This document shows positions 1 through 18,519 of a stretch of 22,928 bases of DNA, in pieces. Each line of letters begins with the position of its first letter. The stretch's first letter is position 1. Source of the DNA: a virus. Taxonomy: Duplodnaviria > Heunggongvirae > Uroviricota > Caudoviricetes. The position numbers and the translations under genes are program-made. The notes beneath the pieces were generated by a model that did no database searches, was not told where the DNA came from, and was given only the letters and a program-made list of their open reading frames with translations. The DNA lies in the IMG/VR virus record IMGVR_UViG_3300045988_024436, positions 1 through 22,928 of that record. One strand, 5' to 3'.

Positions 1-634
1 CCCCCTGGATGTCTGTTGGTGACAGCGGAGCATTGCTGAATGCATTTGTTAATCCGCCAATATCCAACGCGTATCCAGGGTGTAGTTGCACTGCCGGGTC
101 TTCGCACTGATTACCCCAAACATCGAAGCCATGAGACGTCTGGCGGGCGAACAGTTCAATGCGAGAAACATCGCCTAATAATTGCACAAGTTTTTCACGA
201 ACGATATCTGGCTTTCTTGAATGCTCAAGCCGCGGTGCGGTAAATGACTGAACGATCCCTGCATTAATGCGCGTAGGTAGTTTTCCCTTTACCGCAAACA
301 GGCAATCTTCACTATTGGCGCGAGTCATGTGTCCCATACCCATAACCAGTTTATCTGGTTGTCGACTACCACATTTTATCCACGTGAAGCCCTTCATCGT
401 CATCAGACGGAATCCCCAGGCTTCAACAACTTTTAGTGCTTCGAGTGGTTGTGTTGGCACCCACCACATGGCCAACAGACAGTTTTCATCGGCCAAATCC
501 CACACAGGAAGGCGGCAGATATCCAGCACACTCATAACCGGATATTTAAAACCGGCACCGCGATTACCATCTGCGGCTTTGTCCCGGTATACCCAGGGTG
601 GATCTGCATAGATTAGTGTGTATTTCTTAGTCAT
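1..634 (-). CDS. MT-A70 family N6-adenine DNA methyltransferase; 3' end not reached inside window
   Basis: Minus-strand ORF from ATG (plus 632-634) translates MTKKYTLIYADPPWVYRDKAADGNRGAGFKYP...FTAPRLEHSRKPDIVREKL...FDVWGNQ... with the DPPW catalytic motif. The frame stays open to position 2, so it is absent from the supplied track (no in-window stop). Confidence 0.75.
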   Translation of the reverse strand, partial: MTKKYTLIYADPPWVYRDKAADGNRGAGFKYPVMSVLDICRLPVWDLADENCLLAMWWVPTQPLEALKVVEAWGFRLMTMKGFTWIKCGSRQPDKLVMGMGHMTRANSEDCLFAVKGKLPTRINAGIVQSFTAPRLEHSRKPDIVREKLVQLLGDVSRIELFARQTSHGFDVWGNQCEDPAVQLHPGYALDIGGLTNAFSNAPLSPTDIQG

Positions 635-926
635 AAACCACCCCGCAACATCCTATACCGCTATAGTCTCCACGGCGAAGGCCGTTACCTTTTGTGATAC
701 ATTGGTCCCTGCGAACCGCGATCCTTGCACGCTCAACATCACCAGAAGCAACATCCATACACTGAAGCCAAAGGTGAGCGGCAATGCGGAACTGCCCTTT
801 TTTCTCTCTTTCAATCGCGCGTTTTTCGATCTCTATCGCCGCAGGAGTAACGGCGACAATCTTTGACGGACTGCGCATTGAAACCTTATTCATGTGATAT
901 TTTTCAAGTCGGCTTAACTTTCTCAC
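627..926 (-). CDS. hypothetical protein; stop lies 2 nt from the methyltransferase start (coupled)
   Basis: Track ORF of 99 aa; the start may instead be the ATG at 891-893. Stop TAA at 627-629 sits beside the MTase ATG at 632-634. No recognisable domain. Confidence 0.4.
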   Translation of the reverse strand: MRKLSRLEKYHMNKVSMRSPSKIVAVTPAAIEIEKRAIEREKKGQFRIAAHLWLQCMDVASGDVERARIAVRRDQCITKGNGLRRGDYSGIGCCGVVYD

Positions 927-1035
927 TTAATCCAACTCTCTCTGAAAATTAATGCCAGCAGATAAAGCCATGCTGAAACAGAGGCCAGGAATAAGTACCA
1001 TCCTGACCATTTGATCCAGTGCCTTAGCAGCGCAC

Positions 1036-1284
1036 TCATGCAGCGTTGCTCACGGGACGATATACACGTTGCTGAACAGGAGGTTTTTTACCCTGGAACT
1101 CTGCCGGGCTTGCTGCCTGACGTTCATCAAGCCAACGCTCAACTTCGTCACGGTTCCATGCGCAGCGTTTGTCAGTGATATACCAGCGTTTAGGAAATTC
1201 CCCTGCGCGCTCCATACGGTCGATAGTGCTCCATGACAGTGGCACCACCGCCAGGAGTTCCTTCTTACCTAATGCACCTTTCAT
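1036..1284 (-). CDS. AlpA/Xis-family small DNA-binding protein (putative excisionase or regulator)
   Basis: 82 aa; KELLAVVPLSWSTIDRMERAGEFPKRWYITDKRCAWNRDEVERWL resembles AlpA/excisionase winged-helix proteins; SD AGAGAGG 7 nt before the ATG at 1282-1284. Confidence 0.65.
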   Translation of the reverse strand: MKGALGKKELLAVVPLSWSTIDRMERAGEFPKRWYITDKRCAWNRDEVERWLDERQAASPAEFQGKKPPVQQRVYRPVSNAA

Positions 1285-1333
1285 AAATACCTCTCTTGGT
1301 TGCAGTGCGGCGCGTGTGGCACCGCGGTGGTGG

Positions 1334-2361
1334 TTACTCGAATTCTGGACGCATATCGTTAAGCGTCATCATGAATTTTTGGTGATATTCATCACCGAGC
1401 TTTTCAGCCATGGTGTTAATCTCATTTTCAGCGCGCTTGAACATCGTTTTTGCATCTTCAGCAGATGGATCCAGGCTATTAAGTATCGCGATGATATATT
1501 CTCGAGCTTCTTCTCGTTCTGAATCTGAAATTGGCGACAGGTGTTGACGCTCATCGTCAACTACGGAATATTCACCAGTGATAACAGCTGCGTTATCTTG
1601 GCTAAGTCCAGCTTCAGCGCGCTCATCCATAACAACAGCCTTCTGCATTTCAATAGAAACAGGAAGATATTTGAATTGGTCGGCGAATTACTGTTTTTTT
1701 TAGCCATCTCATCGAAGTGATCAACCCATGGGCCACTGCTACCTGCTTTGCTCAGTGCACGAACTTTCTCAATGTCTGCCCGGCTCATAACTTCAAATTT
1801 GGACTCCGCCATCTTTCAGTCGTGCAATCGGCGTAAACGTGCGTTTAATTCTCCGCGGTCACCTGTTTCGCAAGGTAAATGCTCGAGCGTTTCTTCCAGG
1901 CCGTATGAGTAGCTGAATTTGTCGTTTGTATGTACGGTACGAGCCGAGATACTCAGGATCTGCCCAGAGCGGCGGGCAAGGTCAATCATTCCGCGATAGC
2001 CGATAATCAGCTGTGCTTCTGTAGATACGGTTTCCCATCTTCCATTTACTTTCTGGCGTTTGTCGAACGGTATCAGGTAAGCGTGTCCAAGAGCTCCGCC
2101 TGGTTCAAGACCCAATTGGGCACATTGCATAATTGCCCCCAGGAAGCTGGCTTGGTCGCATGATGCAAGTTTTGGAACCTTTCGGATCTCTGTGGTTGCT
2201 ATGCGCGCCAGACGGTCTGCTGTCATGTGCTTTGGAAGTGCCAAAGCCATCTGAGCTTTAATTTTTGGGTCTGCCAGAAGTCCGGCCAGAGTTGTTGGTT
2301 TCTCATTATGATGTGCAACTTGGTTACCGGTAGCCGCTGCCTTAAGTGCATTGATAGACAT
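1334..2361 (-). pseudogene. recT: RecT-family single-strand annealing recombinase, interrupted by an in-frame TGA and frame changes (or sequencing errors)
   Basis: Three consecutive minus-strand ORFs (1816-2361, 1561-1812, 1334-1648) each match successive parts of RecT: ALPKHMTADRLARIATTEIRKVP...QLIIGYRGMIDLARRSGQI, then FEVMSRADIEKVRALSKAGSSGPWVDHFDEMAKK, then MQKAVVMDER...TGEYSVVD. TGA at 1816-1818 is in frame between the first two. RecT-like peptides HVYA, ARLKDGG and KFEVM lie in three different frames around 1786-1845. The frame changes again at the T8 run 1694-1701. Confidence 0.65.
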
Positions 2362-2370
2362 TTTTTCTCC

Positions 2371-3270
2371 TTACTTCATTCTGAAGACGCGTTGTGTCGT
2401 TGTTGTTTTGAATTTTTCGAATAACTCAGGGTGTACTGACTGGAATAGCTTCTGGTCGAATCTGTTGCTGATCTGAGATTTCCATGTGCAGAGCGGCTTT
2501 CCGTCCAGGGTCAGGACTGAGTGCTCTTGCATGTACATCTTCAGCTTCTCTTCTGATATAGCTATTTCTTCTTCCAGTGATTTTCTGCGTGACTTCATGT
2601 CTCGTAGATCGTTGAATAGTGCGAGTGCCTTTCCGTCAGCCTCGATACTTGTCCCGGCATCTTTCTCAAACATCAGCGATACATCGCTTACGCTGGTAGC
2701 TTCCGGCGGGTTAAGATTTTTCACTCGGTCCCAGAAAGCGATTTCTTTTTCTAAGATCGCCTGGATAGTTTCTTCATCACGCTCAACCCGATAGATTCGG
2801 AAGTCGTCGCCACCGATAAGCACACCGAAAACGCATACCTGTTTGTTTGTAACCATCAACCCGTGCATGGCCTGGGCCGTGTAATGCACAGGAATTGCAT
2901 CTGTCTGGATTTCTCCCCATTCTTTGGCTTTGAACGGACTAACTGTTTTGATCTCAATGTTCTCGCCTGACGCTGCTTCTGCATCGATCTCAGCTGCAAT
3001 AAAATCGTAATCACGGTGGATATAGCGGTTTCCGCGATGAACGATTTCCATCCCTGTTTCCTCAGAAAGCAGGTCTATTACGTATGGCTCCATACGCTGG
3101 CCACGCGTGAAAACTTTCTGCTTGCTTGGGTCTACTGGTTTGACACGTGGCTGGACCTTATCCAGATAAACCTCAAGCGGGGTGCGCCATGGGCTAATTC
3201 CAAGAATCCCTGCAACATCGCTTCCTCCGATGTATTTTGTTCTATCCATGATTCCAGCGTTCTGCATCAT
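2371..3270 (-). CDS. YqaJ/RecE-type exonuclease (PD-(D/E)XK fold), recombination partner of RecT
   Basis: 299 aa; N-terminal IGGSDVAGILGISPWRTPLEVY is the YqaJ viral recombinase signature; sits directly upstream of recT on the same strand; SD GGAG before the downstream gene. Confidence 0.7.
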   Translation of the reverse strand: MMQNAGIMDRTKYIGGSDVAGILGISPWRTPLEVYLDKVQPRVKPVDPSKQKVFTRGQRMEPYVIDLLSEETGMEIVHRGNRYIHRDYDFIAAEIDAEAASGENIEIKTVSPFKAKEWGEIQTDAIPVHYTAQAMHGLMVTNKQVCVFGVLIGGDDFRIYRVERDEETIQAILEKEIAFWDRVKNLNPPEATSVSDVSLMFEKDAGTSIEADGKALALFNDLRDMKSRRKSLEEEIAISEEKLKMYMQEHSVLTLDGKPLCTWKSQISNRFDQKLFQSVHPELFEKFKTTTTQRVFRMK

Positions 3271-3530
3271 GCCGCTTCCCTCTGCCCATCAATCCGATCC
3301 GCCAGATCCCAGCGGGCGATAATTGCCATTGCCTCGCGCCGGTAGGAATCCATCAGTTCTTCGAACTCAGGGCTGTCTTTAGCAGCCTCCAGCACTTCCT
3401 GACGAACGCCTTTGCCTGTTACAACGTCGAAAGTTGAGGACAGTTGATGAAGTCGGATGCTCTCAATCAGTTCAACTTGTCGGTCATATAGCTGTTCTGA
3501 CAGGCGGTAGTCCTTGTCGAATGCCAGCAT
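3267..3530 (-). CDS. hypothetical early protein
   Basis: 87-aa track ORF; its stop overlaps the exonuclease start (ATGA at 3267-3270); no recognisable domain. Confidence 0.45.
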   Translation of the reverse strand: MLAFDKDYRLSEQLYDRQVELIESIRLHQLSSTFDVVTGKGVRQEVLEAAKDSPEFEELMDSYRREAMAIIARWDLADRIDGQREAA

Positions 3531-3570
3531 GATTTTTTTGAAGATTTTTTCTGCTGATTAACGTTCATTA

Positions 3571-3723
3571 TCAGCCCTCCCATATCTCGTTATCGTTGGC
3601 TACATCGCGAGCTTCTTTGCTGACGAAAGCCCACTTAATGCCTTCCTGTAAGGTGCGGAACTTCCAGCTCATGAATCCGCATGCAGTAACGCAGTACAAA
3701 CCGTTGATGATTTTCCACTGCAT
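3571..3723 (-). CDS. small hypothetical protein (50 aa), first ORF after the leftward promoter
   Basis: Not in track (below 60 aa). ATG at 3721-3723 with GAGG 9 nt upstream; translates MQWKIINGLYCVTACGFMSWKFRTLQEGIKWAFVSKEARDVANDNEIWEG. Confidence 0.3.
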   Translation of the reverse strand: MQWKIINGLYCVTACGFMSWKFRTLQEGIKWAFVSKEARDVANDNEIWEG

Positions 3724-3830
3724 AACTTGTTACCTCGGTCTGTTACCGTTTAGGTAATAATTATGCTTATTTGGTTTGGTGTCAATAGATATGAGTTAAA
3801 AAAATTACCCGTAAGGTAATCTATCTGGCA
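3724..3830 (-). promoter_or_regulatory. leftward early promoter/operator region (PL-like)
   Basis: Minus-strand TTGACA (plus 3780-3785), 17-bp spacer, AATTAT (plus 3757-3762). TTACC-N5-GGTAA palindromes at 3743-3757 (abutting the -10) and 3805-3819 (upstream of the -35). Confidence 0.45.
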
Positions 3831-3854
3831 ATAAAAAAGCCGCCATGAGGCGGC
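3831..3854 (-). terminator. rho-independent terminator after the repressor gene
   Basis: Stem GCCGCC, loop ATGA, stem GGCGGC (3839-3854), followed on the minus strand by TTTTTTAT (plus 3831-3838). Confidence 0.6.
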
Positions 3855-3876
3855 TTACTTACTGAAAAATATAGTT

Positions 3877-4461
3877 TTATTGTTTGCTTTTTTCGTTCTG
3901 GTTGATGACAAATTCAATGTAACTTTCGATCTTTGCTTTCTCGGTTTCGGGTAACAATGCGTAGCGTGAGCGGTCATAGTTGATAGTCGCAGGGTCGTGC
4001 GGGTGAATCAGTAGTTCATATCCGTGACGCCCGAATGCGGATGCAACATTCTCCAGGGTGGAAATGGAAACGCTGACCTCATTGTTTAACAGGCGGCTGA
4101 TTGTCACCTGGGCGACGCCGGATGCGCGGTGAAGTTTTCCCTGTGTTGAAAGGTCGCGGCTTTCGCTCATCCAGCGTTCCAGGTTGTGAGCCGCCAGCTG
4201 ACCTATATCGCTCGGGCCGACAGGCTGAAAACCCTCCTGAGAAAGCGAACGATCAATATCAAGCCAGTTACGGGGTTTATTGGCGGCAGCTTCAATTTTT
4301 CGTGCAACCTGGTCGCCGATAACCTTCTTGCCAAGAGCCCAGCGGTTTACCAGATTTGCCTGAGTTCCAAGTTTTTCTGCCATCCGCGTCTGAACACCAT
4401 TGAATTCACGGTCGATCAAGTCGTTGAGATTTTGCCTGCGGACGTCCTGGATACTTTTCAT
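3877..4461 (-). CDS. immunity repressor with two XRE-type HTH domains and no LexA-like S24 peptidase domain
   Basis: 194 aa; HTH 1 around QTRMAEKLGTQANLVNRWALGKK, HTH 2 around RASGVAQVTISRLLNNEVSVSISTLENVASAFG; divergent from a Cro-like gene; no Ala-Gly/Ser...Lys autocleavage module visible. Confidence 0.7.
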   Translation of the reverse strand: MKSIQDVRRQNLNDLIDREFNGVQTRMAEKLGTQANLVNRWALGKKVIGDQVARKIEAAANKPRNWLDIDRSLSQEGFQPVGPSDIGQLAAHNLERWMSESRDLSTQGKLHRASGVAQVTISRLLNNEVSVSISTLENVASAFGRHGYELLIHPHDPATINYDRSRYALLPETEKAKIESYIEFVINQNEKSKQ

Positions 4462-4615
4462 TTTCTGGAAAATCGCCTCATATATGAATCAGTAGATGAT
4501 TCAATTTAAAGCAATATTACCCAACAGGTAAATGCACCTCATAGGTAACTATCCTTGATTTTTGTTACCTTATGGGTGAATATTTATTATCTGAAATAAA
4601 TATCAGGCAATAGCT
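4462..4615. promoter_or_regulatory. divergent immunity switch region with three operator-like sites
   Basis: Sites TTACCcaacaGGTAA 4517-4531, GCACCtcataGGTAA 4534-4548, TTACCttatgGGTGA 4565-4579. Candidate rightward promoter TTGATT 4555-4560, 17-bp spacer, GAATAT 4578-4583. Confidence 0.55.
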
Positions 4616-4846
4616 ATGAGCGATAACGGACATTTCGATTTCAAAAAGCACTGGCTTGCACTTACTCCGGATGAGCGTGAAGCCTTCGCACAGGAAGCCG
4701 GAACGACTAGTCACTATATCCAGACTCACTTAACAGGCAAGCGCAAAATGCCAGGTAAGGTATTGATGAATGGGCTTTTTAAAGCCTGTAAAACAAGACA
4801 ATGGCTGCGCTCAAAAGCAGAACTGGCATACTTCTTCTACTCATGA
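4616..4846 (+). CDS. Cro-like small HTH regulator
   Basis: 76 aa, divergent from the repressor; REAFAQEAGTTSHYIQTHLTGKRKMP reads as an HTH; followed by a terminator. Confidence 0.55.
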   Translation: MSDNGHFDFKKHWLALTPDEREAFAQEAGTTSHYIQTHLTGKRKMPGKVLMNGLFKACKTRQWLRSKAELAYFFYS

Positions 4847-4868
4847 TATCCAGCTACAACCCTCTGTA

Positions 4869-4890
4869 GACCGCCACCCGGCGGTCTTTT
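4869..4890 (+). terminator. rho-independent terminator after the cro-like gene (tR1-like position)
   Basis: GACCGCC-ACCC-GGCGGTC followed by TTTT. Confidence 0.6.
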
Positions 4891-4994
4891 CATATCTATT
4901 CGTACCTCAAAGGTAATAAAAAACCAAATCTGGTTGATCAAATTTTCCAATTGTGCAAAATAGCCAATATCAATAACAAAAAGGGGCGGAAAAA

Positions 4995-5207
4995 TTGAAG
5001 ATAGTAACCAGAATGGAGGCCGCAAAAGCCGGGTTAAATCGCTATTTCACAGGAAAGCGGTGCCGTCACGGCCATCTCTCTGAAAGGTATGTTCTGAACG
5101 GAACATGTGTTGAATGTGCAATGAATAGCGCCAACCGCCATCGTAATGAATTTGCTTGTGCACTAAAGAGTGCAAGAGGGGAAACCTATGGCAAGCAGCT
5201 GGATTAA
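4995..5207 (+). CDS. small zinc-ribbon protein (CII-position gene, function unknown)
   Basis: 70 aa from TTG at 4995 (AAGGGG about 9 nt upstream), or 64 aa from ATG at 5013; CRHGH...CVEC metal-binding pattern; 3' end overlaps the replication gene start. Confidence 0.4.
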   Translation: MKIVTRMEAAKAGLNRYFTGKRCRHGHLSERYVLNGTCVECAMNSANRHRNEFACALKSARGETYGKQLD

Positions 5208-6018
5208 GGTTGAAGTTATCACTCCTGATAAACCTGAAATTTTTCAGATAGCAGAAATTCTGGGTATTGATCCAGATGCTGTTCTTGGAAAGCTGGTTCG
5301 TATATGGGCATGGGCTGACCAGCAAACAATAGACGGTAACGCTGGCAGCGTTACAAAAGGAGTACTTGATAGACTCGCTTTTATTACAGGATTTGCTGAC
5401 GCCCTCATTAGCGTCGGATGGCTTGCTTATCATGACGGCAAACTAATTCTTCCAAACTTTGAGCGACATAATGGAGAATCATCGAAAAAACGTGCACTTA
5501 CGAATAGAAGAGTGGCAGAGCATCGAAAACGAGTAACGCAAAAAGTAACGCCAACAGCGTTACAAAAGGAGTTACCAGAGGAAGAGGAAGAGGAAGATAT
5601 ATATAAAACCCCACACATAGCGCACGTGCGCGAGGGTGCTCCGACCAGTGAAGCGAACAGTACGCCGTTGCAGGTGGCAGAACCTGAATTTCTGGATGGC
5701 CTGAGTGAACCCATCGGGAAATTTCCGATGACAGATGGCTGGCTACCGTCGCCAGATTTTCGGCGGCGTGCTGCGCTGTGGGGAACGGCCCTGCCGGAAC
5801 CGGAATTTACACCTGCTGAACTTGCTGCATTCCGGGATTACTGGATGGCTGAGGGCAAAGTGTTCACGCAGGTTCAGTGGGAACAAAAATTCGCCAGGCA
5901 CGTAAATCATATCAGGGGAAAATCAAAAAATGCCGGGAAAAGCGATGAGCTTGACTGGAATAACACTGACTGGATAGAAGGGGTGTGGGATGAAATCAAC
6001 TCCAGAACTTCTCAATGA
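5188..6018 (+). CDS. replication initiation protein with DnaT-like C-terminal domain (O-like position)
   Basis: ATG at 5188 with SD AGAGGGG. C-terminus FPMTDGWLPSPDFRRRAALWGTALPEPEFTPAELAAFRDYWMAEGKVFTQVQWEQKFARHV matches recalled E. coli DnaT. Acidic linker EEEEEED. Confidence 0.7.
   Translation: MASSWIKVEVITPDKPEIFQIAEILGIDPDAVLGKLVRIWAWADQQTIDGNAGSVTKGVLDRLAFITGFADALISVGWLAYHDGKLILPNFERHNGESSKKRALTNRRVAEHRKRVTQKVTPTALQKELPEEEEEEDIYKTPHIAHVREGAPTSEANSTPLQVAEPEFLDGLSEPIGKFPMTDGWLPSPDFRRRAALWGTALPEPEFTPAELAAFRDYWMAEGKVFTQVQWEQKFARHVNHIRGKSKNAGKSDELDWNNTDWIEGVWDEINSRTSQ
5330..5612 (+). other. putative replication origin inside the initiator gene (iteron-like palindromes plus AT-rich tract)
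   Basis: GTAACGC-N5-GCGTTAC at 5336-5354 and 5545-5563, extra GTAACGC at 5533-5539, GTTAC at 5571-5575. 18-bp direct repeat CAGCGTTACAAAAGGAGT at 5346-5363 and 5555-5572. (GAGGAA)3 at 5578-5595, then ATATATATAAAA. Confidence 0.4.
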
Positions 6019-6766
6019 GTACGATCGCTTACGTGAGCATGGTGTTGCTGTGCATGAAGAGCGGCGTGACAGCAATGGCAAAAAGGAGCAGGTTGCTAGA
6101 ATTTTCAATGAACTATTTGTCCAGTTACAGGCTGCATTTCCTGCAAGCGTTTCGACCATAAGGGAGCAGAACAAACTTAATGAATTCCGTAAGCAATGGA
6201 TGCTTGCGTTTCTGGAGAATGGGATCACTACAATGGAACAGGTTAACGCTGGTATGCGCCACGCCCGCGCCAGTGAATCTCCGTTCTGGCCGTCGCCAGG
6301 GCAATTCATCAAGTGGTGCAAAGACAGCAAGATGGTTCTTGGCGTCACCATTGACGATGTGATGGCGGAGTTTCACCGGTACAGCAAGGAAAAAAGTTTA
6401 TATCCTGGTGGTCCCGAAAGATTCCCGTGGCGGCATCCGGTTATGTACTGGGTCGTATGTGATACCCGTCGTGCAATGTATCAGCGCCAGCTTAGCGAGA
6501 GTGAGGTTGAGAAACACGCGCGCAGGCTGCTCGATGATTGGGCGAAAAAGGTGGCTTCCGGACAGCAGATACCCGATCCGGTGATCAGCATACAGGCAAA
6601 GCCAGAGCCCATGAGTACACCTCCGGACACAGGGAGAGACGTTTACCATCCACCAGGGCGAAGTTTCGGGTGCATGCCTAACGCCGCCACCCTTGGGGGA
6701 ATAACACCGGCGCAGTGGCTGATGGAGGAATACAGGCGGGGAAAGGCGTCAGGATTTATCAAGTAA
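5990..6766 (+). CDS. P: lambda P-like replication protein (helicase loader)
   Basis: 258 aa; NGITTMEQVNAGMR and FWPSPGQFIKWC match the lambda P protein as recalled; start overlaps the stop of the upstream initiator gene. Confidence 0.8.
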   Translation: MKSTPELLNEYDRLREHGVAVHEERRDSNGKKEQVARIFNELFVQLQAAFPASVSTIREQNKLNEFRKQWMLAFLENGITTMEQVNAGMRHARASESPFWPSPGQFIKWCKDSKMVLGVTIDDVMAEFHRYSKEKSLYPGGPERFPWRHPVMYWVVCDTRRAMYQRQLSESEVEKHARRLLDDWAKKVASGQQIPDPVISIQAKPEPMSTPPDTGRDVYHPPGRSFGCMPNAATLGGITPAQWLMEEYRRGKASGFIK

Positions 6767-6771
6767 TACCA

Positions 6772-6791
6772 GCGCGATAGCGCATTTTTTT
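6772..6791 (+). terminator. weak terminator-like hairpin after the P-like gene
   Basis: GCGC-GATA-GCGC followed by ATTTTTTT; short stem. Confidence 0.35.
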
Positions 6792-6883
6792 ACGTATCGA
6801 TAATTACCTTAGAGGTAATAAAATATTCTAAAATCTATTGATTTCGTGTCTTATGTGGTTTTTAATTACCTAAGGGGTAAATC
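6792..6883 (+). promoter_or_regulatory. promoter with flanking operator-like palindromes upstream of the nuclease gene
   Basis: TTGATT 6838-6843, 17-bp spacer, TTTAAT 6861-6866. TTACCttagaGGTAA at 6804-6818; TTACCtaaggGGTAA at 6866-6880 overlaps the -10 and the SD of the 6884 gene. Confidence 0.5.
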
Positions 6884-7231
6884 ATGAGAAAACAGATGCA
6901 GGCTCTTGGTCGACTCAAAACAGGCCAGATGAACAAAACAGAATCTGCGTATTGCCAGCACCTTGAGCAGCGTAAACGTGCAGGGGAAATCGCTTGGTAT
7001 CGATTCGAGGGTATCAAGCTGCGGTTAGCTGACAACACGTTCTATACGCCAGATTTCGCTGTGATGCTCGCCACCGGCGAGATGGAACTGCACGAAGTGA
7101 AAGGGGGATTCTGGACCGACGACGCCAGGGTGAAAACCAAAGTCGCCGCAGATCAGTATCCGTTCCGAATCATCGGGGTAACGGTTAAACCAAAGAAAGC
7201 TGGTGGTGGCTGGAACATCGAAGAGTTCTGA
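6884..7231 (+). CDS. putative PD-(D/E)XK nuclease (VRR-NUC-like)
   Basis: 115 aa; D...ELHEVKGG arrangement (YTPDFAVMLATGEMELHEVKGG) suggests a D-x(n)-E-x-K active site. Confidence 0.45.
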   Translation: MRKQMQALGRLKTGQMNKTESAYCQHLEQRKRAGEIAWYRFEGIKLRLADNTFYTPDFAVMLATGEMELHEVKGGFWTDDARVKTKVAADQYPFRIIGVTVKPKKAGGGWNIEEF

Positions 7232-7335
7232 ATCGACGATCTTTTTAGTTATCAATGTAATCAATAAGTTATGTGGATAAGCGAGGGTAAAGATGGAAAG
7301 TAATATCAAAAGGGTTAGTTGCCGCCGGGCATGAG

Positions 7336-7755
7336 ATGGCTTCGGAACTGAAAGCTGAATGTGGTGCCGTTGATATGCGCAGTGTGGCAAAGCTGATCAG
7401 CGATTTGGCAACGCAACTGGAAGTGCAACTGGTGCGTGCTAATGCGCTGGCGGCGGAGAATGCGGCGCTGAAACACGCAATGGCCGTAACTCTTGAGCAT
7501 GTGTCGGTCACGGATGCAGGGCAGGCTGGTGTTGCTGCAATGATTATCAACGATGCCCTATACCACAGCGAAACTCCGGTCACCGACGCTCTCCTGGCTG
7601 AAGTACGTGCGCAGGCGTTTAATGACCTTTGCTCGGTGTTCGTTAAGGACGCGACGGTTGCCGGGCTGGACGATGGCGACATCGTTACGGTGAAAGAAGC
7701 GACGGACGCCCTGCTGCATTGTGCGGAGCAGCTTCGCAAAGGAGGCAACCAGTGA
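7336..7755 (+). CDS. hypothetical protein
   Basis: 139-aa track ORF on the coding strand of the operon; weak SD; the minus-strand ORF 7269-7925 is treated as antisense. Confidence 0.4.
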   Translation: MASELKAECGAVDMRSVAKLISDLATQLEVQLVRANALAAENAALKHAMAVTLEHVSVTDAGQAGVAAMIINDALYHSETPVTDALLAEVRAQAFNDLCSVFVKDATVAGLDDGDIVTVKEATDALLHCAEQLRKGGNQ

Positions 7756-8306
7756 GCAAGATTGATTATCAAAAGCTTCGTGAAATCGCTGAAAAAACAA
7801 AAATTGCTGGTGAAGCACCTGTAATGCCTTTCGATCAGCGAATTAATGCGCTTAACGATTTTATGAAGCACTTTTCGCCAGATATCGCGCTGGCATTGTT
7901 GGATGAACGGGAAAGAAACCTGCAATACATCAAAAGCCGCGATCAGGAGAACGAGGATATTGCGCTAACGGTAGGGAAGCTGCGTGTTGAGCTGGAAGGC
8001 AAAGACAGCAAAATAGCCAATCTTACCGCCGAACGCGATGCTCTTCGTGAAGGTGAGATGGGCGACGCTAGGCATAGCAACACACGGGCCGCAGCTGATA
8101 TCTACTTCCAACTGGTCGAGGAGTGCGAAATTCCTGCTGGCGGTTCTCTGGTCGAGTACGTTGACGATATGCGCGAGAAGCTGGAAGCCGCAGAGAAGCG
8201 CATTGCAGAACTGGAAGCACGGGAAATAAAACCAGCCAAAGGTGAAGTTCTTGTCGTTGTTCTGGTTTTACTGGTTGCGGAAAAAGCGCCATCGCCGGGG
8301 AAATAG
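7752..8306 (+). CDS. coiled-coil protein, Ead/Ea22-like
   Basis: GTG at 7752 with SD AAAGGAGG 6 nt upstream, overlapping the upstream stop (GTGA); SKIDYQKLREIAEK... then heptad-rich LEAAEKRIAELEAR; hydrophobic C-terminus VLVVVLVLLVA. Confidence 0.45.
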   Translation: MSKIDYQKLREIAEKTKIAGEAPVMPFDQRINALNDFMKHFSPDIALALLDERERNLQYIKSRDQENEDIALTVGKLRVELEGKDSKIANLTAERDALREGEMGDARHSNTRAAADIYFQLVEECEIPAGGSLVEYVDDMREKLEAAEKRIAELEAREIKPAKGEVLVVVLVLLVAEKAPSPGK

Positions 8307-8314
8307 AAATCGCG

Positions 8315-8503
8315 ATGAAGGCTATTGGTGTACCGGTTAAGTGGACTAATGGCGATGCAGAAAAGCGCATGACTGGCGCTGACTGGCTGACAGCGATTGA
8401 GATGTACAAACCAACTGTGCGCATCGTGGAAGTTAATGTGCCATGCGTCGCTGGCATTTGCATCAAAGGAGACGCAGGAGAGCAAAACGATGAAAAACCG
8501 TAA
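8315..8503 (+). CDS. hypothetical small protein
   Basis: 62 aa; on the operon strand; weak SD. Confidence 0.35.
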   Translation: MKAIGVPVKWTNGDAEKRMTGADWLTAIEMYKPTVRIVEVNVPCVAGICIKGDAGEQNDEKP

Positions 8504-8678
8504 AGCAAAGATTCTGTTAGTTCGTAGAAACGCTCCTGGCGTCTGGCAGTGGGTGAGACTCAGCAACCGACGGATGGGGTTGATGAAATATTACGGGATG
8601 ATGGATTGTGGTTTTTGCAAAAAGCCCAGCGCGGCGCAAAACCGCTGGAAAAACCACTTGCGTACTAAAGGAGAGTGA
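8490..8678 (+). CDS. hypothetical small basic protein
   Basis: 62 aa from ATG at 8490 with GGAG 9 nt upstream; MKNRKAKILLVRRNAPGVWQW...; C-terminal part of track ORF 8397-8678. Confidence 0.35.
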   Translation: MKNRKAKILLVRRNAPGVWQWVRLSNRRMGLMKYYGMMDCGFCKKPSAAQNRWKNHLRTKGE

Positions 8679-8679
8679 T

Positions 8680-8889
8680 ATGGCTATCGCTGCAAGTTAC
8701 ACCATGCATCTCTATTGTGACTGCCGTCAGTGCACGGAAGGTGTATATCCAGTGCCAGACTTCGGTGAGTATATAGGTACGTCATGGGCTGGCTGTGCAA
8801 AAGAGGCGCGCAAGGATGGCTGGCGAATAAGCAAAGACAAAACGCGTGCTTTTGCGCCCGGGCATAAAGTTTTGAGGATTAACAAATGA
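8680..8889 (+). CDS. small Cys-rich protein
   Basis: 69 aa from ATG at 8680 with SD AAGGAGAG; CDCRQC cluster; contains FGEYI, shared with the 10384 gene. Confidence 0.4.
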   Translation: MAIAASYTMHLYCDCRQCTEGVYPVPDFGEYIGTSWAGCAKEARKDGWRISKDKTRAFAPGHKVLRINK

Positions 8890-9833
8890 CCACTATTACC
8901 AGAGAACAAGCTCTGAAAATTATTGAGGCAGCCGATGAGGTTATTAGTGCGCTGGCCGGAACTAACGAGGATGTTCACCCTGGTAGCGATAACATGCTAC
9001 GCCTGTGGGATGACCTGAATGACCGTTACGCGCCGCCGGAAATTGTGCGTGAACTGGCACGGATTGTGCTGGCATCGCTGGAAGCCGAGCCTGTTCTGTA
9101 TCAGTCCTGCACTCGCCCCACCTGGAATAGCGGTGTTCCGTGGACGGAATGGAAAGAACGAAGTCGTGAGTGCTACGAAGACGATTTGCGCTTTACAGAC
9201 ACGCCTGACCATGCCGGTTGGATATACAAATGTCGAAAACTATATACCACTCCGCCAGCGCCGATAGCGTTAGAGGCCATTGAAAACGCAATTGAATACA
9301 TCCGCAGTATCGCTTTTCACATCGATGAAGACGATTACCACGGCAAACATATTGCGTATTTCATGCAGCAAGCATTGGCCTGGCTGGAAGGGCATTCATG
9401 CAGCGACGACAGACTGGGTAAAGCCGAGAATCAACCAGTACGCGGCAACCAGGCTGCCGAATCCAATCGCGATAATGAGTGGACTGGCAATCCTGATATT
9501 GATAACGCCATCATCATGCTCGACCGCATAGATACGCTGGAAAATTGCGATGATGACCGTATTGAGGCTGTTAAGGCTGTTTTGCGTAGACTGGCTGGCA
9601 ACTATCCGGTAATTCCGGATGGTTGGATAAGCTGTAGTGAGCGAATGCCTGAGAACATTCCCGGAAGTTGTAAAGAGTATCTGGTGTTTGATGGGCTTAA
9701 TAATAAAGTTCATCACGATTACTGGGTTGTCCCTGATGGAGACAGTGCGCCAGTTGCGTCGTTCTGGAATCATTACGGGGCACATGTAACTCACTGGATG
9801 CCTCTACCGGAACCGCCGCAGGAGGTTAATTGA
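8886..9833 (+). CDS. DUF551-like phage protein
   Basis: 315 aa; C-terminal GWISCSERMPE...VTHWMPLPEPPQ resembles the DUF551 signature as recalled; SD GAGGA before the ATG. Confidence 0.55.
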   Translation: MTTITREQALKIIEAADEVISALAGTNEDVHPGSDNMLRLWDDLNDRYAPPEIVRELARIVLASLEAEPVLYQSCTRPTWNSGVPWTEWKERSRECYEDDLRFTDTPDHAGWIYKCRKLYTTPPAPIALEAIENAIEYIRSIAFHIDEDDYHGKHIAYFMQQALAWLEGHSCSDDRLGKAENQPVRGNQAAESNRDNEWTGNPDIDNAIIMLDRIDTLENCDDDRIEAVKAVLRRLAGNYPVIPDGWISCSERMPENIPGSCKEYLVFDGLNNKVHHDYWVVPDGDSAPVASFWNHYGAHVTHWMPLPEPPQEVN

Positions 9834-10117
9834 TGGTCTCCTTCGCGAAATATACGATTATTGACTGGATAGCATTCATTCAGGTTTTGCTCATCTGGTT
9901 TTATATGGCTTACAGGAGTGGACAGTGGATTGTCAGTGTAGCCTGTAGCAATGGATGGCGTTGGTGGAACCGAAAGAATAAAAAAGCGCTGGCCTTGGCT
10001 TCGTTTTACGAAGCATTCAATCTTAACAGTCTTCAGCCTGGTTCTGTCGTTGTAGTCACCACTCAAAGCGGCATGACGATACAAATTCACAAGCCAAAGG
10101 AGGAAGGTCGTGGCTAA
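9833..10117 (+). CDS. small membrane protein
   Basis: ATG at 9833 overlapping the upstream TGA; SD AGGAGG 7 nt upstream; hydrophobic N-terminal segment IIDWIAFIQVLLIWFYMAY. Confidence 0.4.
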   Translation: MVSFAKYTIIDWIAFIQVLLIWFYMAYRSGQWIVSVACSNGWRWWNRKNKKALALASFYEAFNLNSLQPGSVVVVTTQSGMTIQIHKPKEEGRG

Positions 10118-10391
10118 CCTGCAACTTGCCGTTAAAGGTGAATACTTCGATGCCATGATTCGCGGAGAGAAAACGGAAGAGTATCGCCTGTGTAATGACT
10201 ACTGGAATAAGCGAATTATGTTCCGCGAGTATGACCGCCTGATTATCACAAAGGGATATCCGAAGCGCGACGATTCCAGCCGCAGAATTGACGTCCCGTA
10301 TGACGGATATGAAATCAAGACAATCACACATCCGCACTTCGGCGATAAACCGGTAAAGGTGTTCGCTATAAAGGTGAATATTGATGGCTAA
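10110..10391 (+). CDS. ASCH-like domain protein
   Basis: GTG start with SD AAGGAGGAAGG; EYFDAMIRGEKTEEYRL fits the ASCH G-x-K-T-x-E-x-R motif. Confidence 0.45.
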   Translation: MANLQLAVKGEYFDAMIRGEKTEEYRLCNDYWNKRIMFREYDRLIITKGYPKRDDSSRRIDVPYDGYEIKTITHPHFGDKPVKVFAIKVNIDG

Positions 10392-10722
10392 ATCAGCAGC
10401 AGAGCGCAAAGCCGCTCAGAGAGCCAGACAAGCTGCATCTGGTGTGCGTAAGCTGGAAATTGTGCTTGATGCTCAGGAAATTGAAATGCTGGAGCGTAAC
10501 TGTGCCACGCGTCGCCCCGGGCGTGCGCCTTACGAATTTGGTGAGTATATAGCGTTACTGATCCGCCAGGATGATGCACGCGTGCACGGGCGTATAAAAT
10601 CGATCAGCAGAAAACGTTGCGGTAAGTGCGGCGAGAGAGTTCCTGTGAATTCATGCCCGTGTGATGGTGACTCGCAATGCTGGGTGACTAAAGGCTGGCA
10701 TGAAACGAAATTAATAGTGTGA
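10384..10722 (+). CDS. Cys-rich protein, possible zinc-finger regulator immediately upstream of the late operon
   Basis: ATG at 10384 with SD AAGGTG; C-terminal CGKCGERVPVNSCPCDGDSQC; stop TGA overlaps the palindrome GTGACATGTCAC. Confidence 0.4.
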   Translation: MAKSAAERKAAQRARQAASGVRKLEIVLDAQEIEMLERNCATRRPGRAPYEFGEYIALLIRQDDARVHGRIKSISRKRCGKCGERVPVNSCPCDGDSQCWVTKGWHETKLIV

Positions 10723-10771
10723 CATGTCACGAGTAGATTATGCATGATGAATTTGATGGGGTTTGAATACT

Positions 10772-10797
10772 GCCGCCAACTATGGCGGCTTTATTTT
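10772..10797 (+). terminator. rho-independent terminator between accessory genes and terminase
   Basis: GCCGCC-AACTAT-GGCGGC followed by TTTATTTT. Confidence 0.55.
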
Positions 10798-10803
10798 GCA
10801 TGG

Positions 10804-10841
10804 TACTATTACCACAACGGTAACTATTACCACGGTGGTTA
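10804..10841 (+). promoter_or_regulatory. operator-like palindromes and direct repeat upstream of the terminase small subunit
   Basis: TTACCacaacGGTAA at 10809-10823 and TTACCacggtGGTTA at 10827-10841; direct repeat ACTATTACCAC at 10806-10816 and 10824-10834. Confidence 0.4.
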
Positions 10842-11296
10842 TGATGCCTGCTGAACCTAAAGCCTATAAACGCAAATCAACGCAATTTAAGCCACTAACA
10901 GCAATGCAGGAGGCTTATTGCCAGTCATACATCAAAACGCCTGAAAACCAGACTCAGGCAGCGATTAACGCAGGATTCTCCCCAAATACAGCGGCAGTTA
11001 AAGCCAGTGTCATGATGCGCGATGAACGCATTCAAAAACGGATTGCCGAGTTGATGGAGGAGCGCAACAAACGAATGCGCGTCAGTGCTGATTACGTTCT
11101 CATGCGCTTGGTGGAGATCGACCAGATGGACGTGATCGACATCCTCAACGACGATGGTAGCCTTAAGCCAATCCGAGAGTGGCCGAAAATCTGGCGCACT
11201 ACGCTTAGCGGCTTTGATCTGTCATCGACCATCATGAACATGAACGAGGATTCGATAGAGACAATCATCAAAAAATTAAATGGCCTGACAAGGTGA
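10841..11296 (+). CDS. terminase small subunit, probably C-terminally truncated by a frame change
   Basis: Track ORF starts at 10763 but its first 26 codons are the terminator and operator DNA, so ATG at 10841 or 10844 is preferred. A protein-like frame ([20 protein letters not shown]...[10 protein letters not shown]) continues from 11290 to a TGA at 11431-11433 that overlaps the GTG of the large subunit. Confidence 0.55.
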
Positions 11297-11429
11297 AGAA
11301 CCTCGAACTGATTGGTAAGCACGTCGACGTCAACGCATTCAAAGAACGCCTGGATGTTAATGTGAATGTGACAATTGCTGATCGCATAGCGGCAGCCAGG
11401 AAGAGACTGAAGAACGTCAGTGGCAATCA

Positions 11430-12908
11430 GTGACAGATACAGCGTTATCTCCTGAAGAGCAGTTAATCGAGATATTGCAGGGTTCACTCACGATCCGCTT
11501 GGCTATGCCCTCTATGGGTTCCCCGTGGGGGGGAAGGAGGGTACTGAACTGGCGACATGCCACCGGTCCACGTCAGTGGCAGGCCGATGCGTTCCGAGAG
11601 ATACGTGATCACCTGCAGAATCCAGAGACGCGATATCAGCCGCTTATGCTGGCACGTGCTTCTGGTCACGGTATTGGTAAATCCGCATTCATCTCAATGC
11701 TGATCAACTGGGGCATGTCCACTTGCGAGGATTGTAAGGTCGTGGTGACCGCCAACACCGACAACCAGCTACGAACGAAGACCTGGCCGGAAATTATCAA
11801 GTGGTCAAACCTTGCTATCACGAAAGACTGGTTTACCTGTACCGCTACCGCGATGTACAGCAATGACCCTGGGCACGACAAGCGGTGGCGAGCTGACGCA
11901 ATCCCCTGGTCTGAGCACAACACTGAGGCATTCGCCGGACTACACAACGAGCGTAAACGCATCATCGTGGTATTTGATGAAGCGTCGAACATTGCGGATC
12001 TGGTGTGGGAAGTTGCCGAGGGTGCGCTAACGGACGAAGACACTGAGATTATCTGGGTGGCTTTCGGAAACCCTACACGTAACACCGGGCGTTTCCGTGA
12101 ATGTTTCCGCAAATACAAACACCGCTGGAAAACTGCGCAGATTGACAGCAGGACGGTGGAAGGCACCAACAAACAGCAGTTGCAGAAATGGGTTGATGAC
12201 TACGGGGAAGATAGCGACTTCGTTAAAATCCGTGTGCGTGGCATATTCCCTGATGCATCTGAATTGCAGTTTATCCCTACCGGTCTTACTGACGAGGCAA
12301 TGAAACGGGTGGTAACTGCTGCGCAGGTGGCACATGCTCCGGTGATAATCGGCGTTGACCCGGCATACTCCGGCGTTGATGACGCTGTGATATACCTGCG
12401 GCAGGGGCTACACAGTAAGGTGCTGTGGACTGGCAACAAGACTACCGACGATCTGATTATGGCGAAGCGTATCGCTGACTTTGAAGACCAGTATCAGGCT
12501 GACGCGGTGTTCATCGACTTCGGTTACGGAACCGGTTTGAAGTCAATCGGTGACGGCTGGGGTCGTACATGGCAACTTGTTCCGTTCGGTGGCGCGTCTA
12601 CTGACCAGCAGATGCTCAACAAGCGTGGGGAGATGTTCAACTCATGCAAGACATGGCTGAGGCTGGGCGGCATGCTTGATGACCAGGAAACAGCGGACGA
12701 CCTGTCGGCGGCAGAGTACAAAGTTCGAGTGGACGGTAAAATCGTTATCGAACCGAAGGAAGATATCAAGGAGCGGCTTGGGCGTTCTCCTGGTAAAGGC
12801 GATGCGCTACTGCTGACGTTTGCGTTCCCGGTGTCAAAGCGCCTGCGAATTCCCGGGCAGCAGAACCAGCAAGGCAAGGCCATTACAGATTACGATCCCT
12901 ATGCTTAA
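11430..12908 (+). CDS. terminase large subunit
   Basis: 492 aa; ATPase-like N-terminal half and nuclease-like C-terminal half ([11 protein letters not shown]...DAV); GTG start overlaps the upstream stop. Confidence 0.8.
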
Positions 12909-12958
12909 TCCGTTAGCGGGGATAATGACGGAGATATCCTCTGGTGAGGATAAAACAA

Positions 12959-12978
12959 AGCCAGCTCATCGGCTGGCT
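12959..12978. terminator. hairpin terminator after terminase, stronger on the minus strand
   Basis: AGCCAGC-TCATCG-GCTGGCT; T-rich on the minus side (TTTGTTTTAT) and TGTTTGT on the plus side. Confidence 0.5.
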
Positions 12979-13184
12979 GTTTGTGACATGTCACGGTGTT
13001 AGAAGGTTATTTTATCGAATGCGGCGTTGATTGCCTTGGCGTCCTGCTCAGCACCAACCACATCAAGTAAAGATCTTTTACTAAGCACTTCAGCCAGGCA
13101 TTGTAACTTCATTGTTGTATAAGGTTTTTCGCGCATTGTAATTCATCATCACTTTTTTCTTTGGCGTATACAGCGCGAGAAATA

Positions 13185-13427
13185 TCAAACTACATTGCCT
13201 TTTTCCATTTCAGTTTTCTGCGCTGAAATCCAGTCATGGCAAGTAACTCCTATTCCATGGTCATCGCTAAGCGTTAACCCGGCAAGTCGCTCACCTGGAA
13301 TTGCTTCACAAAGCATTTCATTTCCTGCAAAAACACCATAAAAAATTGAGTCATCACCCTGAACAATGCGTACATATTTGCACGGCCATTCATTTAGATA
13401 TTTAGCTAGCATGTCGGCTGTTTTCAT
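13185..13427 (-). CDS. hypothetical 80-aa protein in minus-strand insert between terminase and head genes
   Basis: ATG at 13425-13427 with SD AAGGTGAG; opposite strand to the flanking late genes; lies between two minus-strand terminators. Confidence 0.4.
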   Translation of the reverse strand: MKTADMLAKYLNEWPCKYVRIVQGDDSIFYGVFAGNEMLCEAIPGERLAGLTLSDDHGIGVTCHDWISAQKTEMEKGNVV

Positions 13428-13436
13428 GATCTCACC

Positions 13437-13459
13437 TTAAAAAAATGCCCGGCGAACCG
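13437..13459 (-). terminator. rho-independent terminator (minus strand) immediately upstream of the 80-aa ORF
   Basis: Minus strand reads GCCCGG-TTCG-CCGGGC then A TTTTTTT, ending 2 nt before the SD. Confidence 0.6.
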
Positions 13460-13496
13460 GGCGAACTGGAAGCAATGAGTTATGCCTTCCGTGGCT

Positions 13497-13512
13497 GTAC
13501 TGGTTTACAGCA
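13497..13512. promoter_or_regulatory. LexA-box-like palindrome CTGTA-N6-TACAG
   Basis: CTGTACTGGTTTACAG fits the CTGT-N8-ACAG SOS-box core with CTGTA/TACAG arms; centre less AT-rich than canonical boxes. Confidence 0.3.
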
Positions 13513-13540
13513 TGAAGCCATCGCAATGGCGCCCTGCTGT

Positions 13541-13582
13541 AAAAAGGGCGGTGATAGTCCTTCAAGGGAAACCATCACCGCC
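13541..13582 (-). terminator. terminator-like hairpin downstream of the tRNA (minus strand)
   Basis: 9-bp stem GGCGGTGAT/ATCACCGCC (13547-13582), 18-nt loop, followed on the minus strand by CTTTTTAC. Confidence 0.45.
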
Positions 13583-13626
13583 AAGCCCCTGGAACTTCTG
13601 GCATCACGGTCCTTAGGCGTGATTCT

Positions 13627-13702
13627 GGCGTGGCATGCAGGATTCGAACCTGCGACCAACCGCTTAGAAGGCGGTTGCTCTGTCCAGCTGAGCTAATGCC
13701 AC
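13627..13702 (-). tRNA. tRNA-Arg (anticodon UCU)
   Basis: Reverse complement GTGGCATTAGCTCAGCTGGACAGAGCAACCGCCTTCTAAGCGGTTGGTCGCAGGTTCGAATCCTGCATGCCACGCCA folds as a cloverleaf: 7-bp acceptor stem, anticodon loop CTTCTAA, T-loop TTCGAAT, encoded CCA. Close to E. coli argU as recalled. Confidence 0.9.
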
Positions 13703-14129
13703 AACGCTGAGAGCACTTAGCCTGTTAAGGCGCCACACTTTGTCGCGGCTCCATAAATGCTCTCATCGTTGTACCCTCGTCTCTTCCGAGGCGTCACACC
13801 GAATCGCCGGGATGGTGAATCCCCGTGCGCGGAATAAAACCGCTCGACTTGCACATTCCGGCTACCTGGTTCGTTTGCCCGAGCAAGGGAGGGTGCCCCT
13901 TAAACGTATCCAGACCGCTATCGGCGCATGTGCCATACGCCGTACTGCTCAAAATAAAAGCTCACTCCACCTGTTCAATTTAACGACAAGCCAGTCAGGT
14001 TAGTAACCGGAATGAACTCTTTGGTTACCTGAAAGGTAATAATTTGTGCGTTAAATGTCAACTGCCTACGATAAATAAATCATATGTGGTTAAATTGGTA
14101 ATAATTTAATTGCGTACGGAGTCATTGAT

Positions 14130-14336
14130 ATGTGCATGGGTAGCTCACCATCAGTGCCTGCAACACCAGAAGTTCAGGCAGCACCACAGGAGCAGGATGC
14201 CGCCGTTGTTGATGCCCGCGACGAAGAAACTCGTCGCCGTCGCGCTGCTGCTGGTCGTAGTTCTACGCTGCTTACCGGTTCTCAGGGCGACACATCAACC
14301 GCTAATACCAGCGGTAAAACGCTGCTTGGTCAGTAA
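14130..14336 (+). CDS. hypothetical small protein at the start of the morphogenesis operon
   Basis: 68 aa; GGAG 8 nt before the ATG; preferred over the overlapping 14110 ORF because of the SD and because its stop sits just before the next gene. Confidence 0.4.
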   Translation: MCMGSSPSVPATPEVQAAPQEQDAAVVDARDEETRRRRAAAGRSSTLLTGSQGDTSTANTSGKTLLGQ

Positions 14337-14350
14337 CCGGAGTCATTGAA

Positions 14351-16028
14351 ATGGCGGAAACAACTAAAGAGCGATTGAACAAACAGTTCGCACAACTTGA
14401 AAGCGAGCGTCAGTCGTTCGAGCCGCACTGGCGCGAGTTGAGTGATTACATCAACCCGCGTGGTTCCCGCTTTCTGACTTCTGAGGTTAACCGTAACGAT
14501 CGACGCAATACACGCATTATTGATTCGACCGGGACTATGGCGGCGCGCACTCTCGCCAGCGGCATGATGTCAGGCATCACAGCCCCGCGCGTCCGTGGTT
14601 TCGCCTGGCTAGCCAGATCCTGAAATGATGGATTATGGCCCTGTTAAGTTGTGGCTTGAGGCGGTGCAGAACCGCATGAACGATATGTTCAATAAGTCGA
14701 ATCTCTATCAGTCGCTGCCGCAGTTATACGGAAGCCTCGGCACATACAGCACTGGTGCAATGGCAGTGCTGGAGGATGACGAGGACATCATTCGCACAAT
14801 GCCATTCCCGATAGGCAGTTACTACCTGGCTAACTCACCTCGTGGCAGTGTGGACACCTGTTTTCGCAAGTTCTCTATGACTGTTCGTCAGCTTGTTCAG
14901 GAGTTCGGGCTAAATAACGTCAGCGAATCCGTAAAAAGCATGTGGGAAAGCGGAACCTACGAGAAGTGGATTGAAGTGATGCATTCGGTTTACCCGAACA
15001 TTGACCGCGATACATCGAAGCTGGATAGCAAGAACAAGCCATTCAAATCGGTTTATTACGAGGTTGGTGGCGATAACGACAAGTTGTTGCGTGAGTCCGG
15101 ATTCGATGAGTTTCCAATTATGGCTCCGCGCTGGGAAGTTAACGGCGAAGATGTTTATGGATCATCATGCCCGGGTATGCTGGCGCTTGGACCTGTTAAG
15201 GCATTGCAGCTTCTCCAGAAGCGCAAGTCGCAGTTGATTGATAAAGCCACCAATCCGCCGATGGTTGCTCCGACTTCCCTCAAGAATCAGCGTGCCTCCC
15301 TTCTTCCTGGCGACATCACGTATATCGATCAGATTACTGGTCAGGATGGTTTCAGGCCTGCTTATCTGGTTAACCCCAGTACAGCAGATTTGGTGGCAGA
15401 CATTCAGGACACCCGTCAAATCATTAACAGCGCCTACTTTGTCGATCTGTTCATGATGTTGCAGAACATCAATACCCGCTCGATGCCTGTTGAAGCGGTG
15501 ATCGAAATGAAAGAAGAAAAACTTCTGATGTTGGGGCCGGTTCTGGAGCGTCTGAACGACGAATGTCTTAATCCTCTCATTGACCGCGCTTTCTCGATGA
15601 TGGTGCGTAAAAACATGCTGCCGCCACCGCCTGACGCGATGGAAGGTATGCCCCTGAAGGTCGAATACATTTCCGTCATGGCTCAGGCGCAGAAGTCTAT
15701 CGGCCTGTCCAGTCTGGCGTCTACGGTCAACTTCATTGGTCAACTTGCGCAAGCGAAACCAGAAGCTCTCGACAAACTCAACGTTGATCAGGCGATCGAT
15801 GCATTCGCTGATATGTCCGGAGTGTCTCCAACCGTCATTGTTCCGCAGGAACAGGTTGAGCAGGCTCGCCAGCAACGGGCACAGCAACAACAGCAGCAAC
15901 AAATGATGGCGATGGGGATGGCGGCGGCACAGGGTGCCAAGACGCTAAGCGAAGCTAAAACTTCGGATCCGAGTGTTTTGTCAGCTATGGCGAATGCAGT
16001 TAGTGGTCAGGGTGGGCAATCACAATGA
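14351..16028 (+). pseudogene. portal (head-to-tail connector) protein, apparently split by two nearby frame changes (or sequencing errors)
   Basis: ORFs 14351-14623 (90 aa) and 14625-16028 (467 aa) are in different frames. The third frame across the junction encodes SPARPWFRLA (14581-14610), which resembles the P-x3-W-x-RL stretch of T7 gp8; a C4 run lies at 14583-14586. Poly-Q near the C-terminus. Confidence 0.65.
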
Positions 16029-16321
16029 CAGATTACGAAGACGATCAACTGAAAGAAGAAAACGCCCGTAAGCAACGTGACATGGCACAGCGTGAAATTG
16101 ATGACATTTGCTTTGTCATGAGCAGTGAACAGGGGCGTCGCGTTGTCTGGTCGGTGCTGGAGAAAGGCCGTGTGTTTTCCGCTATCTCACCGATGGACGC
16201 TATGGCAATGGCATTTAATGAGGGGCAACGCAATCTGGCGCTGGAACTGTTTCAGCGCGTTATGGCGCATTGCCCTGAACAGTATTTGAAGATGGCCAAA
16301 GAGGCCAGTGAACAGGAGTGA
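16025..16321 (+). CDS. hypothetical head-assembly protein
   Basis: 98 aa; ATG overlaps the portal stop (ATGA). Confidence 0.45.
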   Translation: MTDYEDDQLKEENARKQRDMAQREIDDICFVMSSEQGRRVVWSVLEKGRVFSAISPMDAMAMAFNEGQRNLALELFQRVMAHCPEQYLKMAKEASEQE

Positions 16322-16323
16322 TC

Positions 16324-17019: not shown

Positions 17020-17033
17020 GAGAGGAAATGACA

Positions 17034-18020: not shown

Positions 18021-18036
18021 CGCCTGTTATTAACCT

Positions 18037-18056
18037 GTGGGTCGTAACAGACCCAC
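18037..18056 (+). other. stem-loop after the capsid gene (possible processing site or attenuator)
   Basis: GTGGGTC-GTAACA-GACCCAC; no T-tract follows. Confidence 0.3.
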
Positions 18057-18071
18057 TAATGGAGAAAGAAG

Positions 18072-18509: not shown

Positions 18510-18519
18510 GGTGATATCG

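Follow-up and report, generated by a model that had tools for sequence, protein, structure and literature searches.

The closest described relatives of the gene considered here are the recT genes of the epsilon15-like (Uetakevirus) prophages of E. coli, including those of A33 and APEC O1 (RecT accession WP_000026204.1), which lie in the same neighbourhood as in the sequence described below, with a YqaJ exonuclease gene upstream and a gene for an AlpA-like regulator downstream. In E. coli genomes, phages of this group are commonly found integrated next to guaA. The recT gene of Salmonella phage epsilon15 is 84% identical at the DNA level to the copy described here, and the only solved structure that matches an intact homologue by sequence is that of LiRecT, encoded by a Listeria innocua prophage (PDB 7UB2 / 7UBB; E = 9e-10, residues 24-248). 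LiRecT is a distant relative and was compared by sequence, solely as a means of placing the lesions described below within the conserved core of the protein.

We analysed a 22,928-nucleotide stretch of phage DNA (the window), in which recT occupies positions 1334-2361 on the minus strand. Among the Uetakevirus relatives this copy stands alone: it is 1028 nt long on account of five +1 insertions, is interrupted by a premature TGA and lacks a continuous open reading frame (ORF), whereas the gene is intact and 1023 nt long in all relatives. We argue here that the lesion very probably consists of errors in raw reads that passed into a consensus of low depth and is not a property of the phage.

An intact homologue of the gene matches the Pfam RecT domain (PF03837) with a score of 194 bits across residues 50-246, and two of the fragments present in the window continue to do so, with scores of 107 bits for the 181-aa fragment and 28.9 bits for that of 83 aa (cut-off 24). 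On the strength of this domain match the window gene is assigned to the RecT family, its domain being spread over three frames by the five insertions and interrupted by the TGA at 1816-1818; a single continuous ORF would be recovered if the five extra bases are errors. Nine nucleotides upstream of recT, on the same strand, lies an intact gene encoding a 299-aa YqaJ-family exonuclease (2371-3270, minus strand; Pfam YqaJ PF09588, 83 bits), the pair making up an exonuclease and annealing protein module that has the same arrangement in all relatives examined. The exact YqaJ protein occurs in 3079 blocks of the collection searched and, among the matches listed, is adjacent to a 340-aa RecT in ten out of ten. 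The underlying gene is an ordinary one: it encodes a 340-aa RecT single-strand annealing protein and, together with the YqaJ exonuclease gene, belongs to the early region of a phage or prophage of the epsilon15/phiV10-like (Uetakevirus) type. The two ends of the window, at positions 1 and 22928, cut through genes encoding an MT-A70 methyltransferase (left) and a T7 gp14-like core protein (right); because both ends lie inside genes, the contig is silent as to whether it derives from an integrated prophage or from free phage.

Other members of the group possess a different module at the same position. In these (L005 at 1833-3532, L009 at 2333-4032 and L058-L063), a 293-313-aa RecT takes the place of the 340-aa one, and its partner is not YqaJ but a DUF3799/RecE-like exonuclease of 273 aa. 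In phage PAS61, the two CDSs at the recT position, 704 and 821 nt long, both bear the annotation 'RecT protein', the second of which may be a misannotated exonuclease.

The original prediction for this locus held that RecT-like peptide segments appear in three frames between positions 1786 and 1845, and translation of the minus strand bears this out: the native RecT peptide runs through THVYA in frame 1 and ARLKDGGVQ in frame 2 to FEVMSRADIEK... in frame 0, the stretch in frame 0 reading FEVMSRADIEKVRALSKAGSSGPWVDHFDEMAKK. The N-terminal ORF (2361-1816) encodes 181 aa and is closed, as had also been predicted, by an in-frame TGA at 1816-1818, whilst the C-terminal 104 or more residues (FKYLPVSIEMQ...EFE and stop) are found in frame 2 after an A8 run, ending at 1334. 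Alignment of the gene at the nucleotide level with three intact 1023-nt copies, the course suggested originally, allowed each indel to be placed: five one-base insertions are present in approximately 170 nt, each of them adding A to the sense strand, or T as read on the + strand, with a single adjoining substitution and a net change to recT of +5 nt. The path of the reading frame through the gene is thus 0, +1, +2, 0, +1, +2.

The first insertion (1844-1846) converts AA to AAA at gene column 516 and shifts the frame to +1 after native residue ~172; it is absent from 50 of 50 relatives. The second places an A between G and T at position 1828 (column 534, GCCG^TTGC becoming GCCGATTGC), outside any homopolymer, shifts the frame to +2 and is missing from all 49 relatives compared. 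The bases of the premature TGA that follows (1816-1818) form part of CGA CTG AAA (R L K) in the native frame. Insertion three, again AA to AAA (1798-1800, column 562), returns the native peptide to frame 0 for ~99 nt, after which a homopolymer of A7 becomes A8 (T8 on the + strand) at 1694-1701 (column 661). The fifth insertion (1676-1677), together with the substitution at 1678, changes CT-A to CCAA at columns 684-685 (GACT-ATTC becoming GACCAATTC) and leaves the last 114 residues to be read in frame +2. A second frame change at the T8 run, as originally noted, is therefore real, but two insertions separated by 18-25 nt, not one, are responsible for it, which is why the C-terminus lies in frame +2; the fifth insertion had been missed and the total is five.

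Outside columns 516-685 the window gene is identical to the recT of E. coli A33, and when the five inserted bases are removed one substitution separates the two (99.4% including gaps). From base composition, the chance of all five insertions in recT being the same base is about 0.5%. The lesions fall at approximately residues 172-229, inside the conserved RecT core, and the part of the gene carrying insertions four and five aligns with the conserved MAKKTV(I/L)R stretch seen in the LiRecT comparison.

We looked for the lesion in related sequences. Megablast matches to the gene came from 78 complete E. coli genomes and five phage records (Phi05_1387 B, epsilon15 and a Klebsiella phage among them); in every row listed the match covers 1023 nt, whereas the window has 1028 nt. 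An intact recT of 1023 nt is present in each of the 50 full-length relatives, and none carries any of the five insertions, a pattern that chance would hardly produce. Intermediate alleles with between one and four of the insertions were likewise absent from the 50 relatives. A mutant 42-mer spanning insertions one and two had no exact match in IMG/VR, in GTDB genomes or in JGI metagenomes, whereas a wild-type 40-mer was found in 32 IMG/VR contigs. Neither a copy of the lesion in an independent related sequence nor an intermediate allele, the signs by which a genuine pseudogene would be recognised, was therefore seen in these comparisons. An exact-sequence look-up of the 181-aa RecT fragment returned no record, a result that is unreliable since the gene table of the source contig itself includes a 181-aa RecT product.

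Comparison of the whole window with seven relatives, and then with 51, revealed more one-base indels private to it, lying close together in groups. The nearest relative, found via a protein look-up, is the E. coli draft assembly GCA_005384645.1 (BFLT01000003.1; referred to as L052), in which the genes of this region are all called full length. Positions 2-17234 of the window align with L052 in a single 17.2-kb alignment containing seven substitutions and 26 one-base indels, and 24 of these indels fall into five patches that together comprise 573 nt (3.3% of the compared sequence). The first patch, in which five T residues are added between 1676 and 1844, is the one that breaks recT. The second (3539-3545) consists of two T insertions 6 nt apart that cut the 5' end of a 99-aa gene, leaving 87 aa here, and is absent in 45 of 45 relatives. 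In the third (11269-11554, + strand), five one-base deletions are followed by four one-base insertions and a substitution, and the small terminase gene is broken. The ORF of the large terminase gene (11430-12908) stays open, encoding 492 aa compared to 491, with residues 15-42 out of frame and the frame then regained; this 28-aa stretch results from one deletion and four insertions, summing to +3. Six insertions (five T and one G) within 79 nt make up the fourth patch (13113-13191) and break a gene encoding 140 aa in L052, whilst in the fifth (14580-14611, + strand) the loss of an A at 14580 and of a C at 14611 splits the portal gene into ORFs of 90 aa and 467 aa. The two remaining indels are isolated. 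At 7308 a private A insertion (A3 to A4) is located at the start of a gene that encodes 153 aa in L052, and at 8259 a T is missing from a T3 run, by comparison with L052, inside an Ead/Ea22-like gene; L052 is the sole close relative covering that stretch. At least six genes besides recT are affected by one-base indels.

Two further observations concern the terminase and portal regions. A tRNA-Arg gene (anticodon TCT; 13626-13702, minus strand) lies between terminase and portal, as it does in relatives, and outside the patch at 13113-13191. In several metagenome and Logan assemblies of related phages (L064-L069), the region matching window positions 14540-14680 also has a portal gene split into approximately 90 aa and 467 aa; their small lesions differ from one another, deletions of 2 nt and of 4 nt being among them, and these split portals may be either real defective copies or more assembly errors. 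The shared 467-aa fragment was considered as support for a real lesion in the window and rejected, since the lesion upstream of it is different in each assembly and none has the two deletions seen in the window.

The median distance from one indel to its nearest neighbour is 13 nt, compared to 242 nt expected at random, and none of 100,000 random placements was equally tight (p < 1e-5); patches range from 7 to 286 nt in size, with an indel density of 3-8% inside them. The natural spectrum in the group was obtained from pairwise comparison of thirteen intact relatives across the segment matching window positions 2-7250, where 4892 mismatches and 102 gap openings were counted, a ratio of approximately 48:1. 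Over that same segment the window differs from L052 by one mismatch and seven gaps. An internal control is provided by window positions 17000-22928, where 60 substitutions but not a single gap separate the window from the best relative: this is the appearance of natural divergence here. The original observation that single-base indels packed into a short span do not resemble gradual decay was well founded. The comparison with L052 gives 26 indels to seven substitutions, against a natural ratio of about 1:48; indels are in excess there, the patches are no longer than a read, and the genes affected are unrelated to one another.

There is also a bias in the inserted base. Whichever way the gene is oriented, both insertions at 3539/3545 and five of the six at 13113-13191 add a T to the assembled + strand, a bias by assembled strand that is consistent with errors belonging to individual reads. 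Of the 18 insertions, 15 add one more copy of a base to a run of it that is already there.

Byte for byte, the window matches a whole metagenome contig of equal length, ena:ERZ504722:NODE_606_length_22928_cov_2.671813, and a comparison of the DNA with the NODE_606 contig found identity over window positions 1430-22908. An exact-sequence look-up of the product of the large terminase gene, including its 28 scrambled residues, yielded that one contig (ERZ504722 NODE_606). A literature search on the assembly accession ERZ504722 found nothing. The 'cov' field of this SPAdes-style name we take to be the k-mer coverage at the largest k, approximately 2.7 for this contig, and by this label the contig is of low depth. 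A k-mer coverage of 2.67 would correspond to a depth of some 3-6 reads, depending on read length and k, and a Poisson estimate would place between a few percent and ~15% of positions under at most one read, both being figures derived from the label, not measured.

At such a depth, short stretches of the contig would lie under a single read or under low-quality read ends, and indel errors in the raw reads would enter the consensus uncorrected. One such stretch of approximately 170 nt in recT would have added five spurious bases, with similar stretches damaging further genes of the same contig. The identity of the gene, its intactness in relatives, the exact lesions, the similar lesions elsewhere in the contig, their spectrum and clustering and the coverage label were all observed directly; from these we infer that the discrepant bases are read errors, and the platform on which they would have arisen is likewise a matter of inference. 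Some points weigh against read error. Had the reads come from an Illumina instrument, so high a number of indels (26 in 17 kb) would be unusual, low depth notwithstanding, and insertions that extend runs (15 of the 18) are also a product of polymerase slippage in vivo. The portal genes of other assemblies in the group are disrupted by lesions different from that in the window, and defective copies may exist in nature.

The last two of these points lend themselves to a different interpretation, that the inactivation is genuine and the window derives from a decaying defective prophage with real frameshifts in recT, terminase, portal and other genes. The prophage to which the window belongs is common at guaA in E. 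coli, defective prophages are common in general, the portal gene is broken by different small deletions in other assemblies, and the majority of the insertions lengthen runs in a slippage-like manner. Even so, we consider genuine decay unlikely. It would require 26 indels to have accumulated alongside only seven substitutions, compared to ~48 substitutions per indel in the group, and to have done so at a density of 3-8% within patches of 7-286 nt, which no ordinary mutational process gives. In a gene that is already dead nothing favours four more hits within 170 nt of the first, no allele with one to four insertions is found among the 50 relatives, and the coverage label of 2.67 sits poorly with such a reading. 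The more specific suggestion that the recombinase had been selectively lost whilst the partner exonuclease was kept finds no support: recT is one of several genes affected and nothing about its lesion is specific to recT. Of the two explanations offered originally it is sequencing error that is favoured, by the private patches in other genes, by the excess of indels and by the coverage of 2.67.

A mutational process acting locally, for instance error-prone repair synthesis or frameshift mutagenesis, and writing real tracts of single-base indels that are often of the same base, would account for the strong clustering, for the repeated insertion of one base within a patch and for the passage from five deletions to four insertions within another. 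We know of no process that gives tracts with 3-8% single-base indels and almost no substitutions, however, and nothing similar is seen in 50 or more relatives. The base bias tracks the assembled strand and not the orientation of the genes, and no tract exceeds a sequencing read in length, in a contig of very low coverage. Were it true, an unknown form of tract-wise frameshift mutagenesis would have disabled recT, terminase, portal and further genes within a single lineage of prophages, which is very unlikely. The diversity-generating type of adenine mutagenesis (DGR) was also considered, in view of the all-A insertions, and was rejected: DGR mutagenesis makes substitutions, not insertions. Least credible of all is that RecT is expressed from the window sequence by programmed frameshifting or another form of recoding. 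One of the insertions does fall in an A8 run, which is potentially slippery, but five shifts would be required, one of them at a non-slippery site (GAT), with the in-frame TGA at 1816-1818 intervening; in all relatives, moreover, recT is a single ORF with A7, such that the conserved slippery site and two-frame organisation expected of programmed frameshifting are not seen.

Two other differences between the window and its relatives were initially candidates for further lesions. At 18902-18911 the window has 10 nt in place of the gp10 ('capsid staple') gene, which is 324 nt in length in APEC E16002, A33 and others. This was rejected as a sign of decay, as the exact junction is present in 35 IMG/VR contigs and is thus a natural variant. 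The insertion of GGA at 7106-7108 looked private against the first panel of relatives, many of which encode a DUF1064 protein of 114 aa; the exact 115-aa protein occurs in 94 blocks, identifying the insertion as a real in-frame polymorphism.

Taken as raw-read errors, the changes in recT carry little biological weight: the RecT/YqaJ module is well known and is intact in dozens of E. coli prophages. Their value is as a caution. A striking compound lesion disappears once it is set against the coverage label, the nearest relative and the remainder of the contig, and gene loss should not be read from apparent pseudogenes in contigs with a coverage of ~2-3.

Two known situations invite comparison. 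The decay of cryptic prophages, of which the recET genes of the Rac prophage are an example, proceeds via deletions, IS insertions and scattered mutations, and related strains have these in common. The window resembles the Rac recET case in that a RecT-type recombinase belongs to a prophage which is either unexpressed or no longer intact. Unlike decay of the Rac type, the lesions in the window are private, clustered, confined to indels and found on one thinly covered contig. A closer likeness is to the 'false pseudogenes' of low-coverage or indel-prone assemblies, with which the window shares a low coverage label, an excess of indels over substitutions, patches that do not exceed a read in length, damage to several unrelated genes and lesions private to a single record; by this indirect route, from features of the sequence and its record, the recT of the window would be classed among them.
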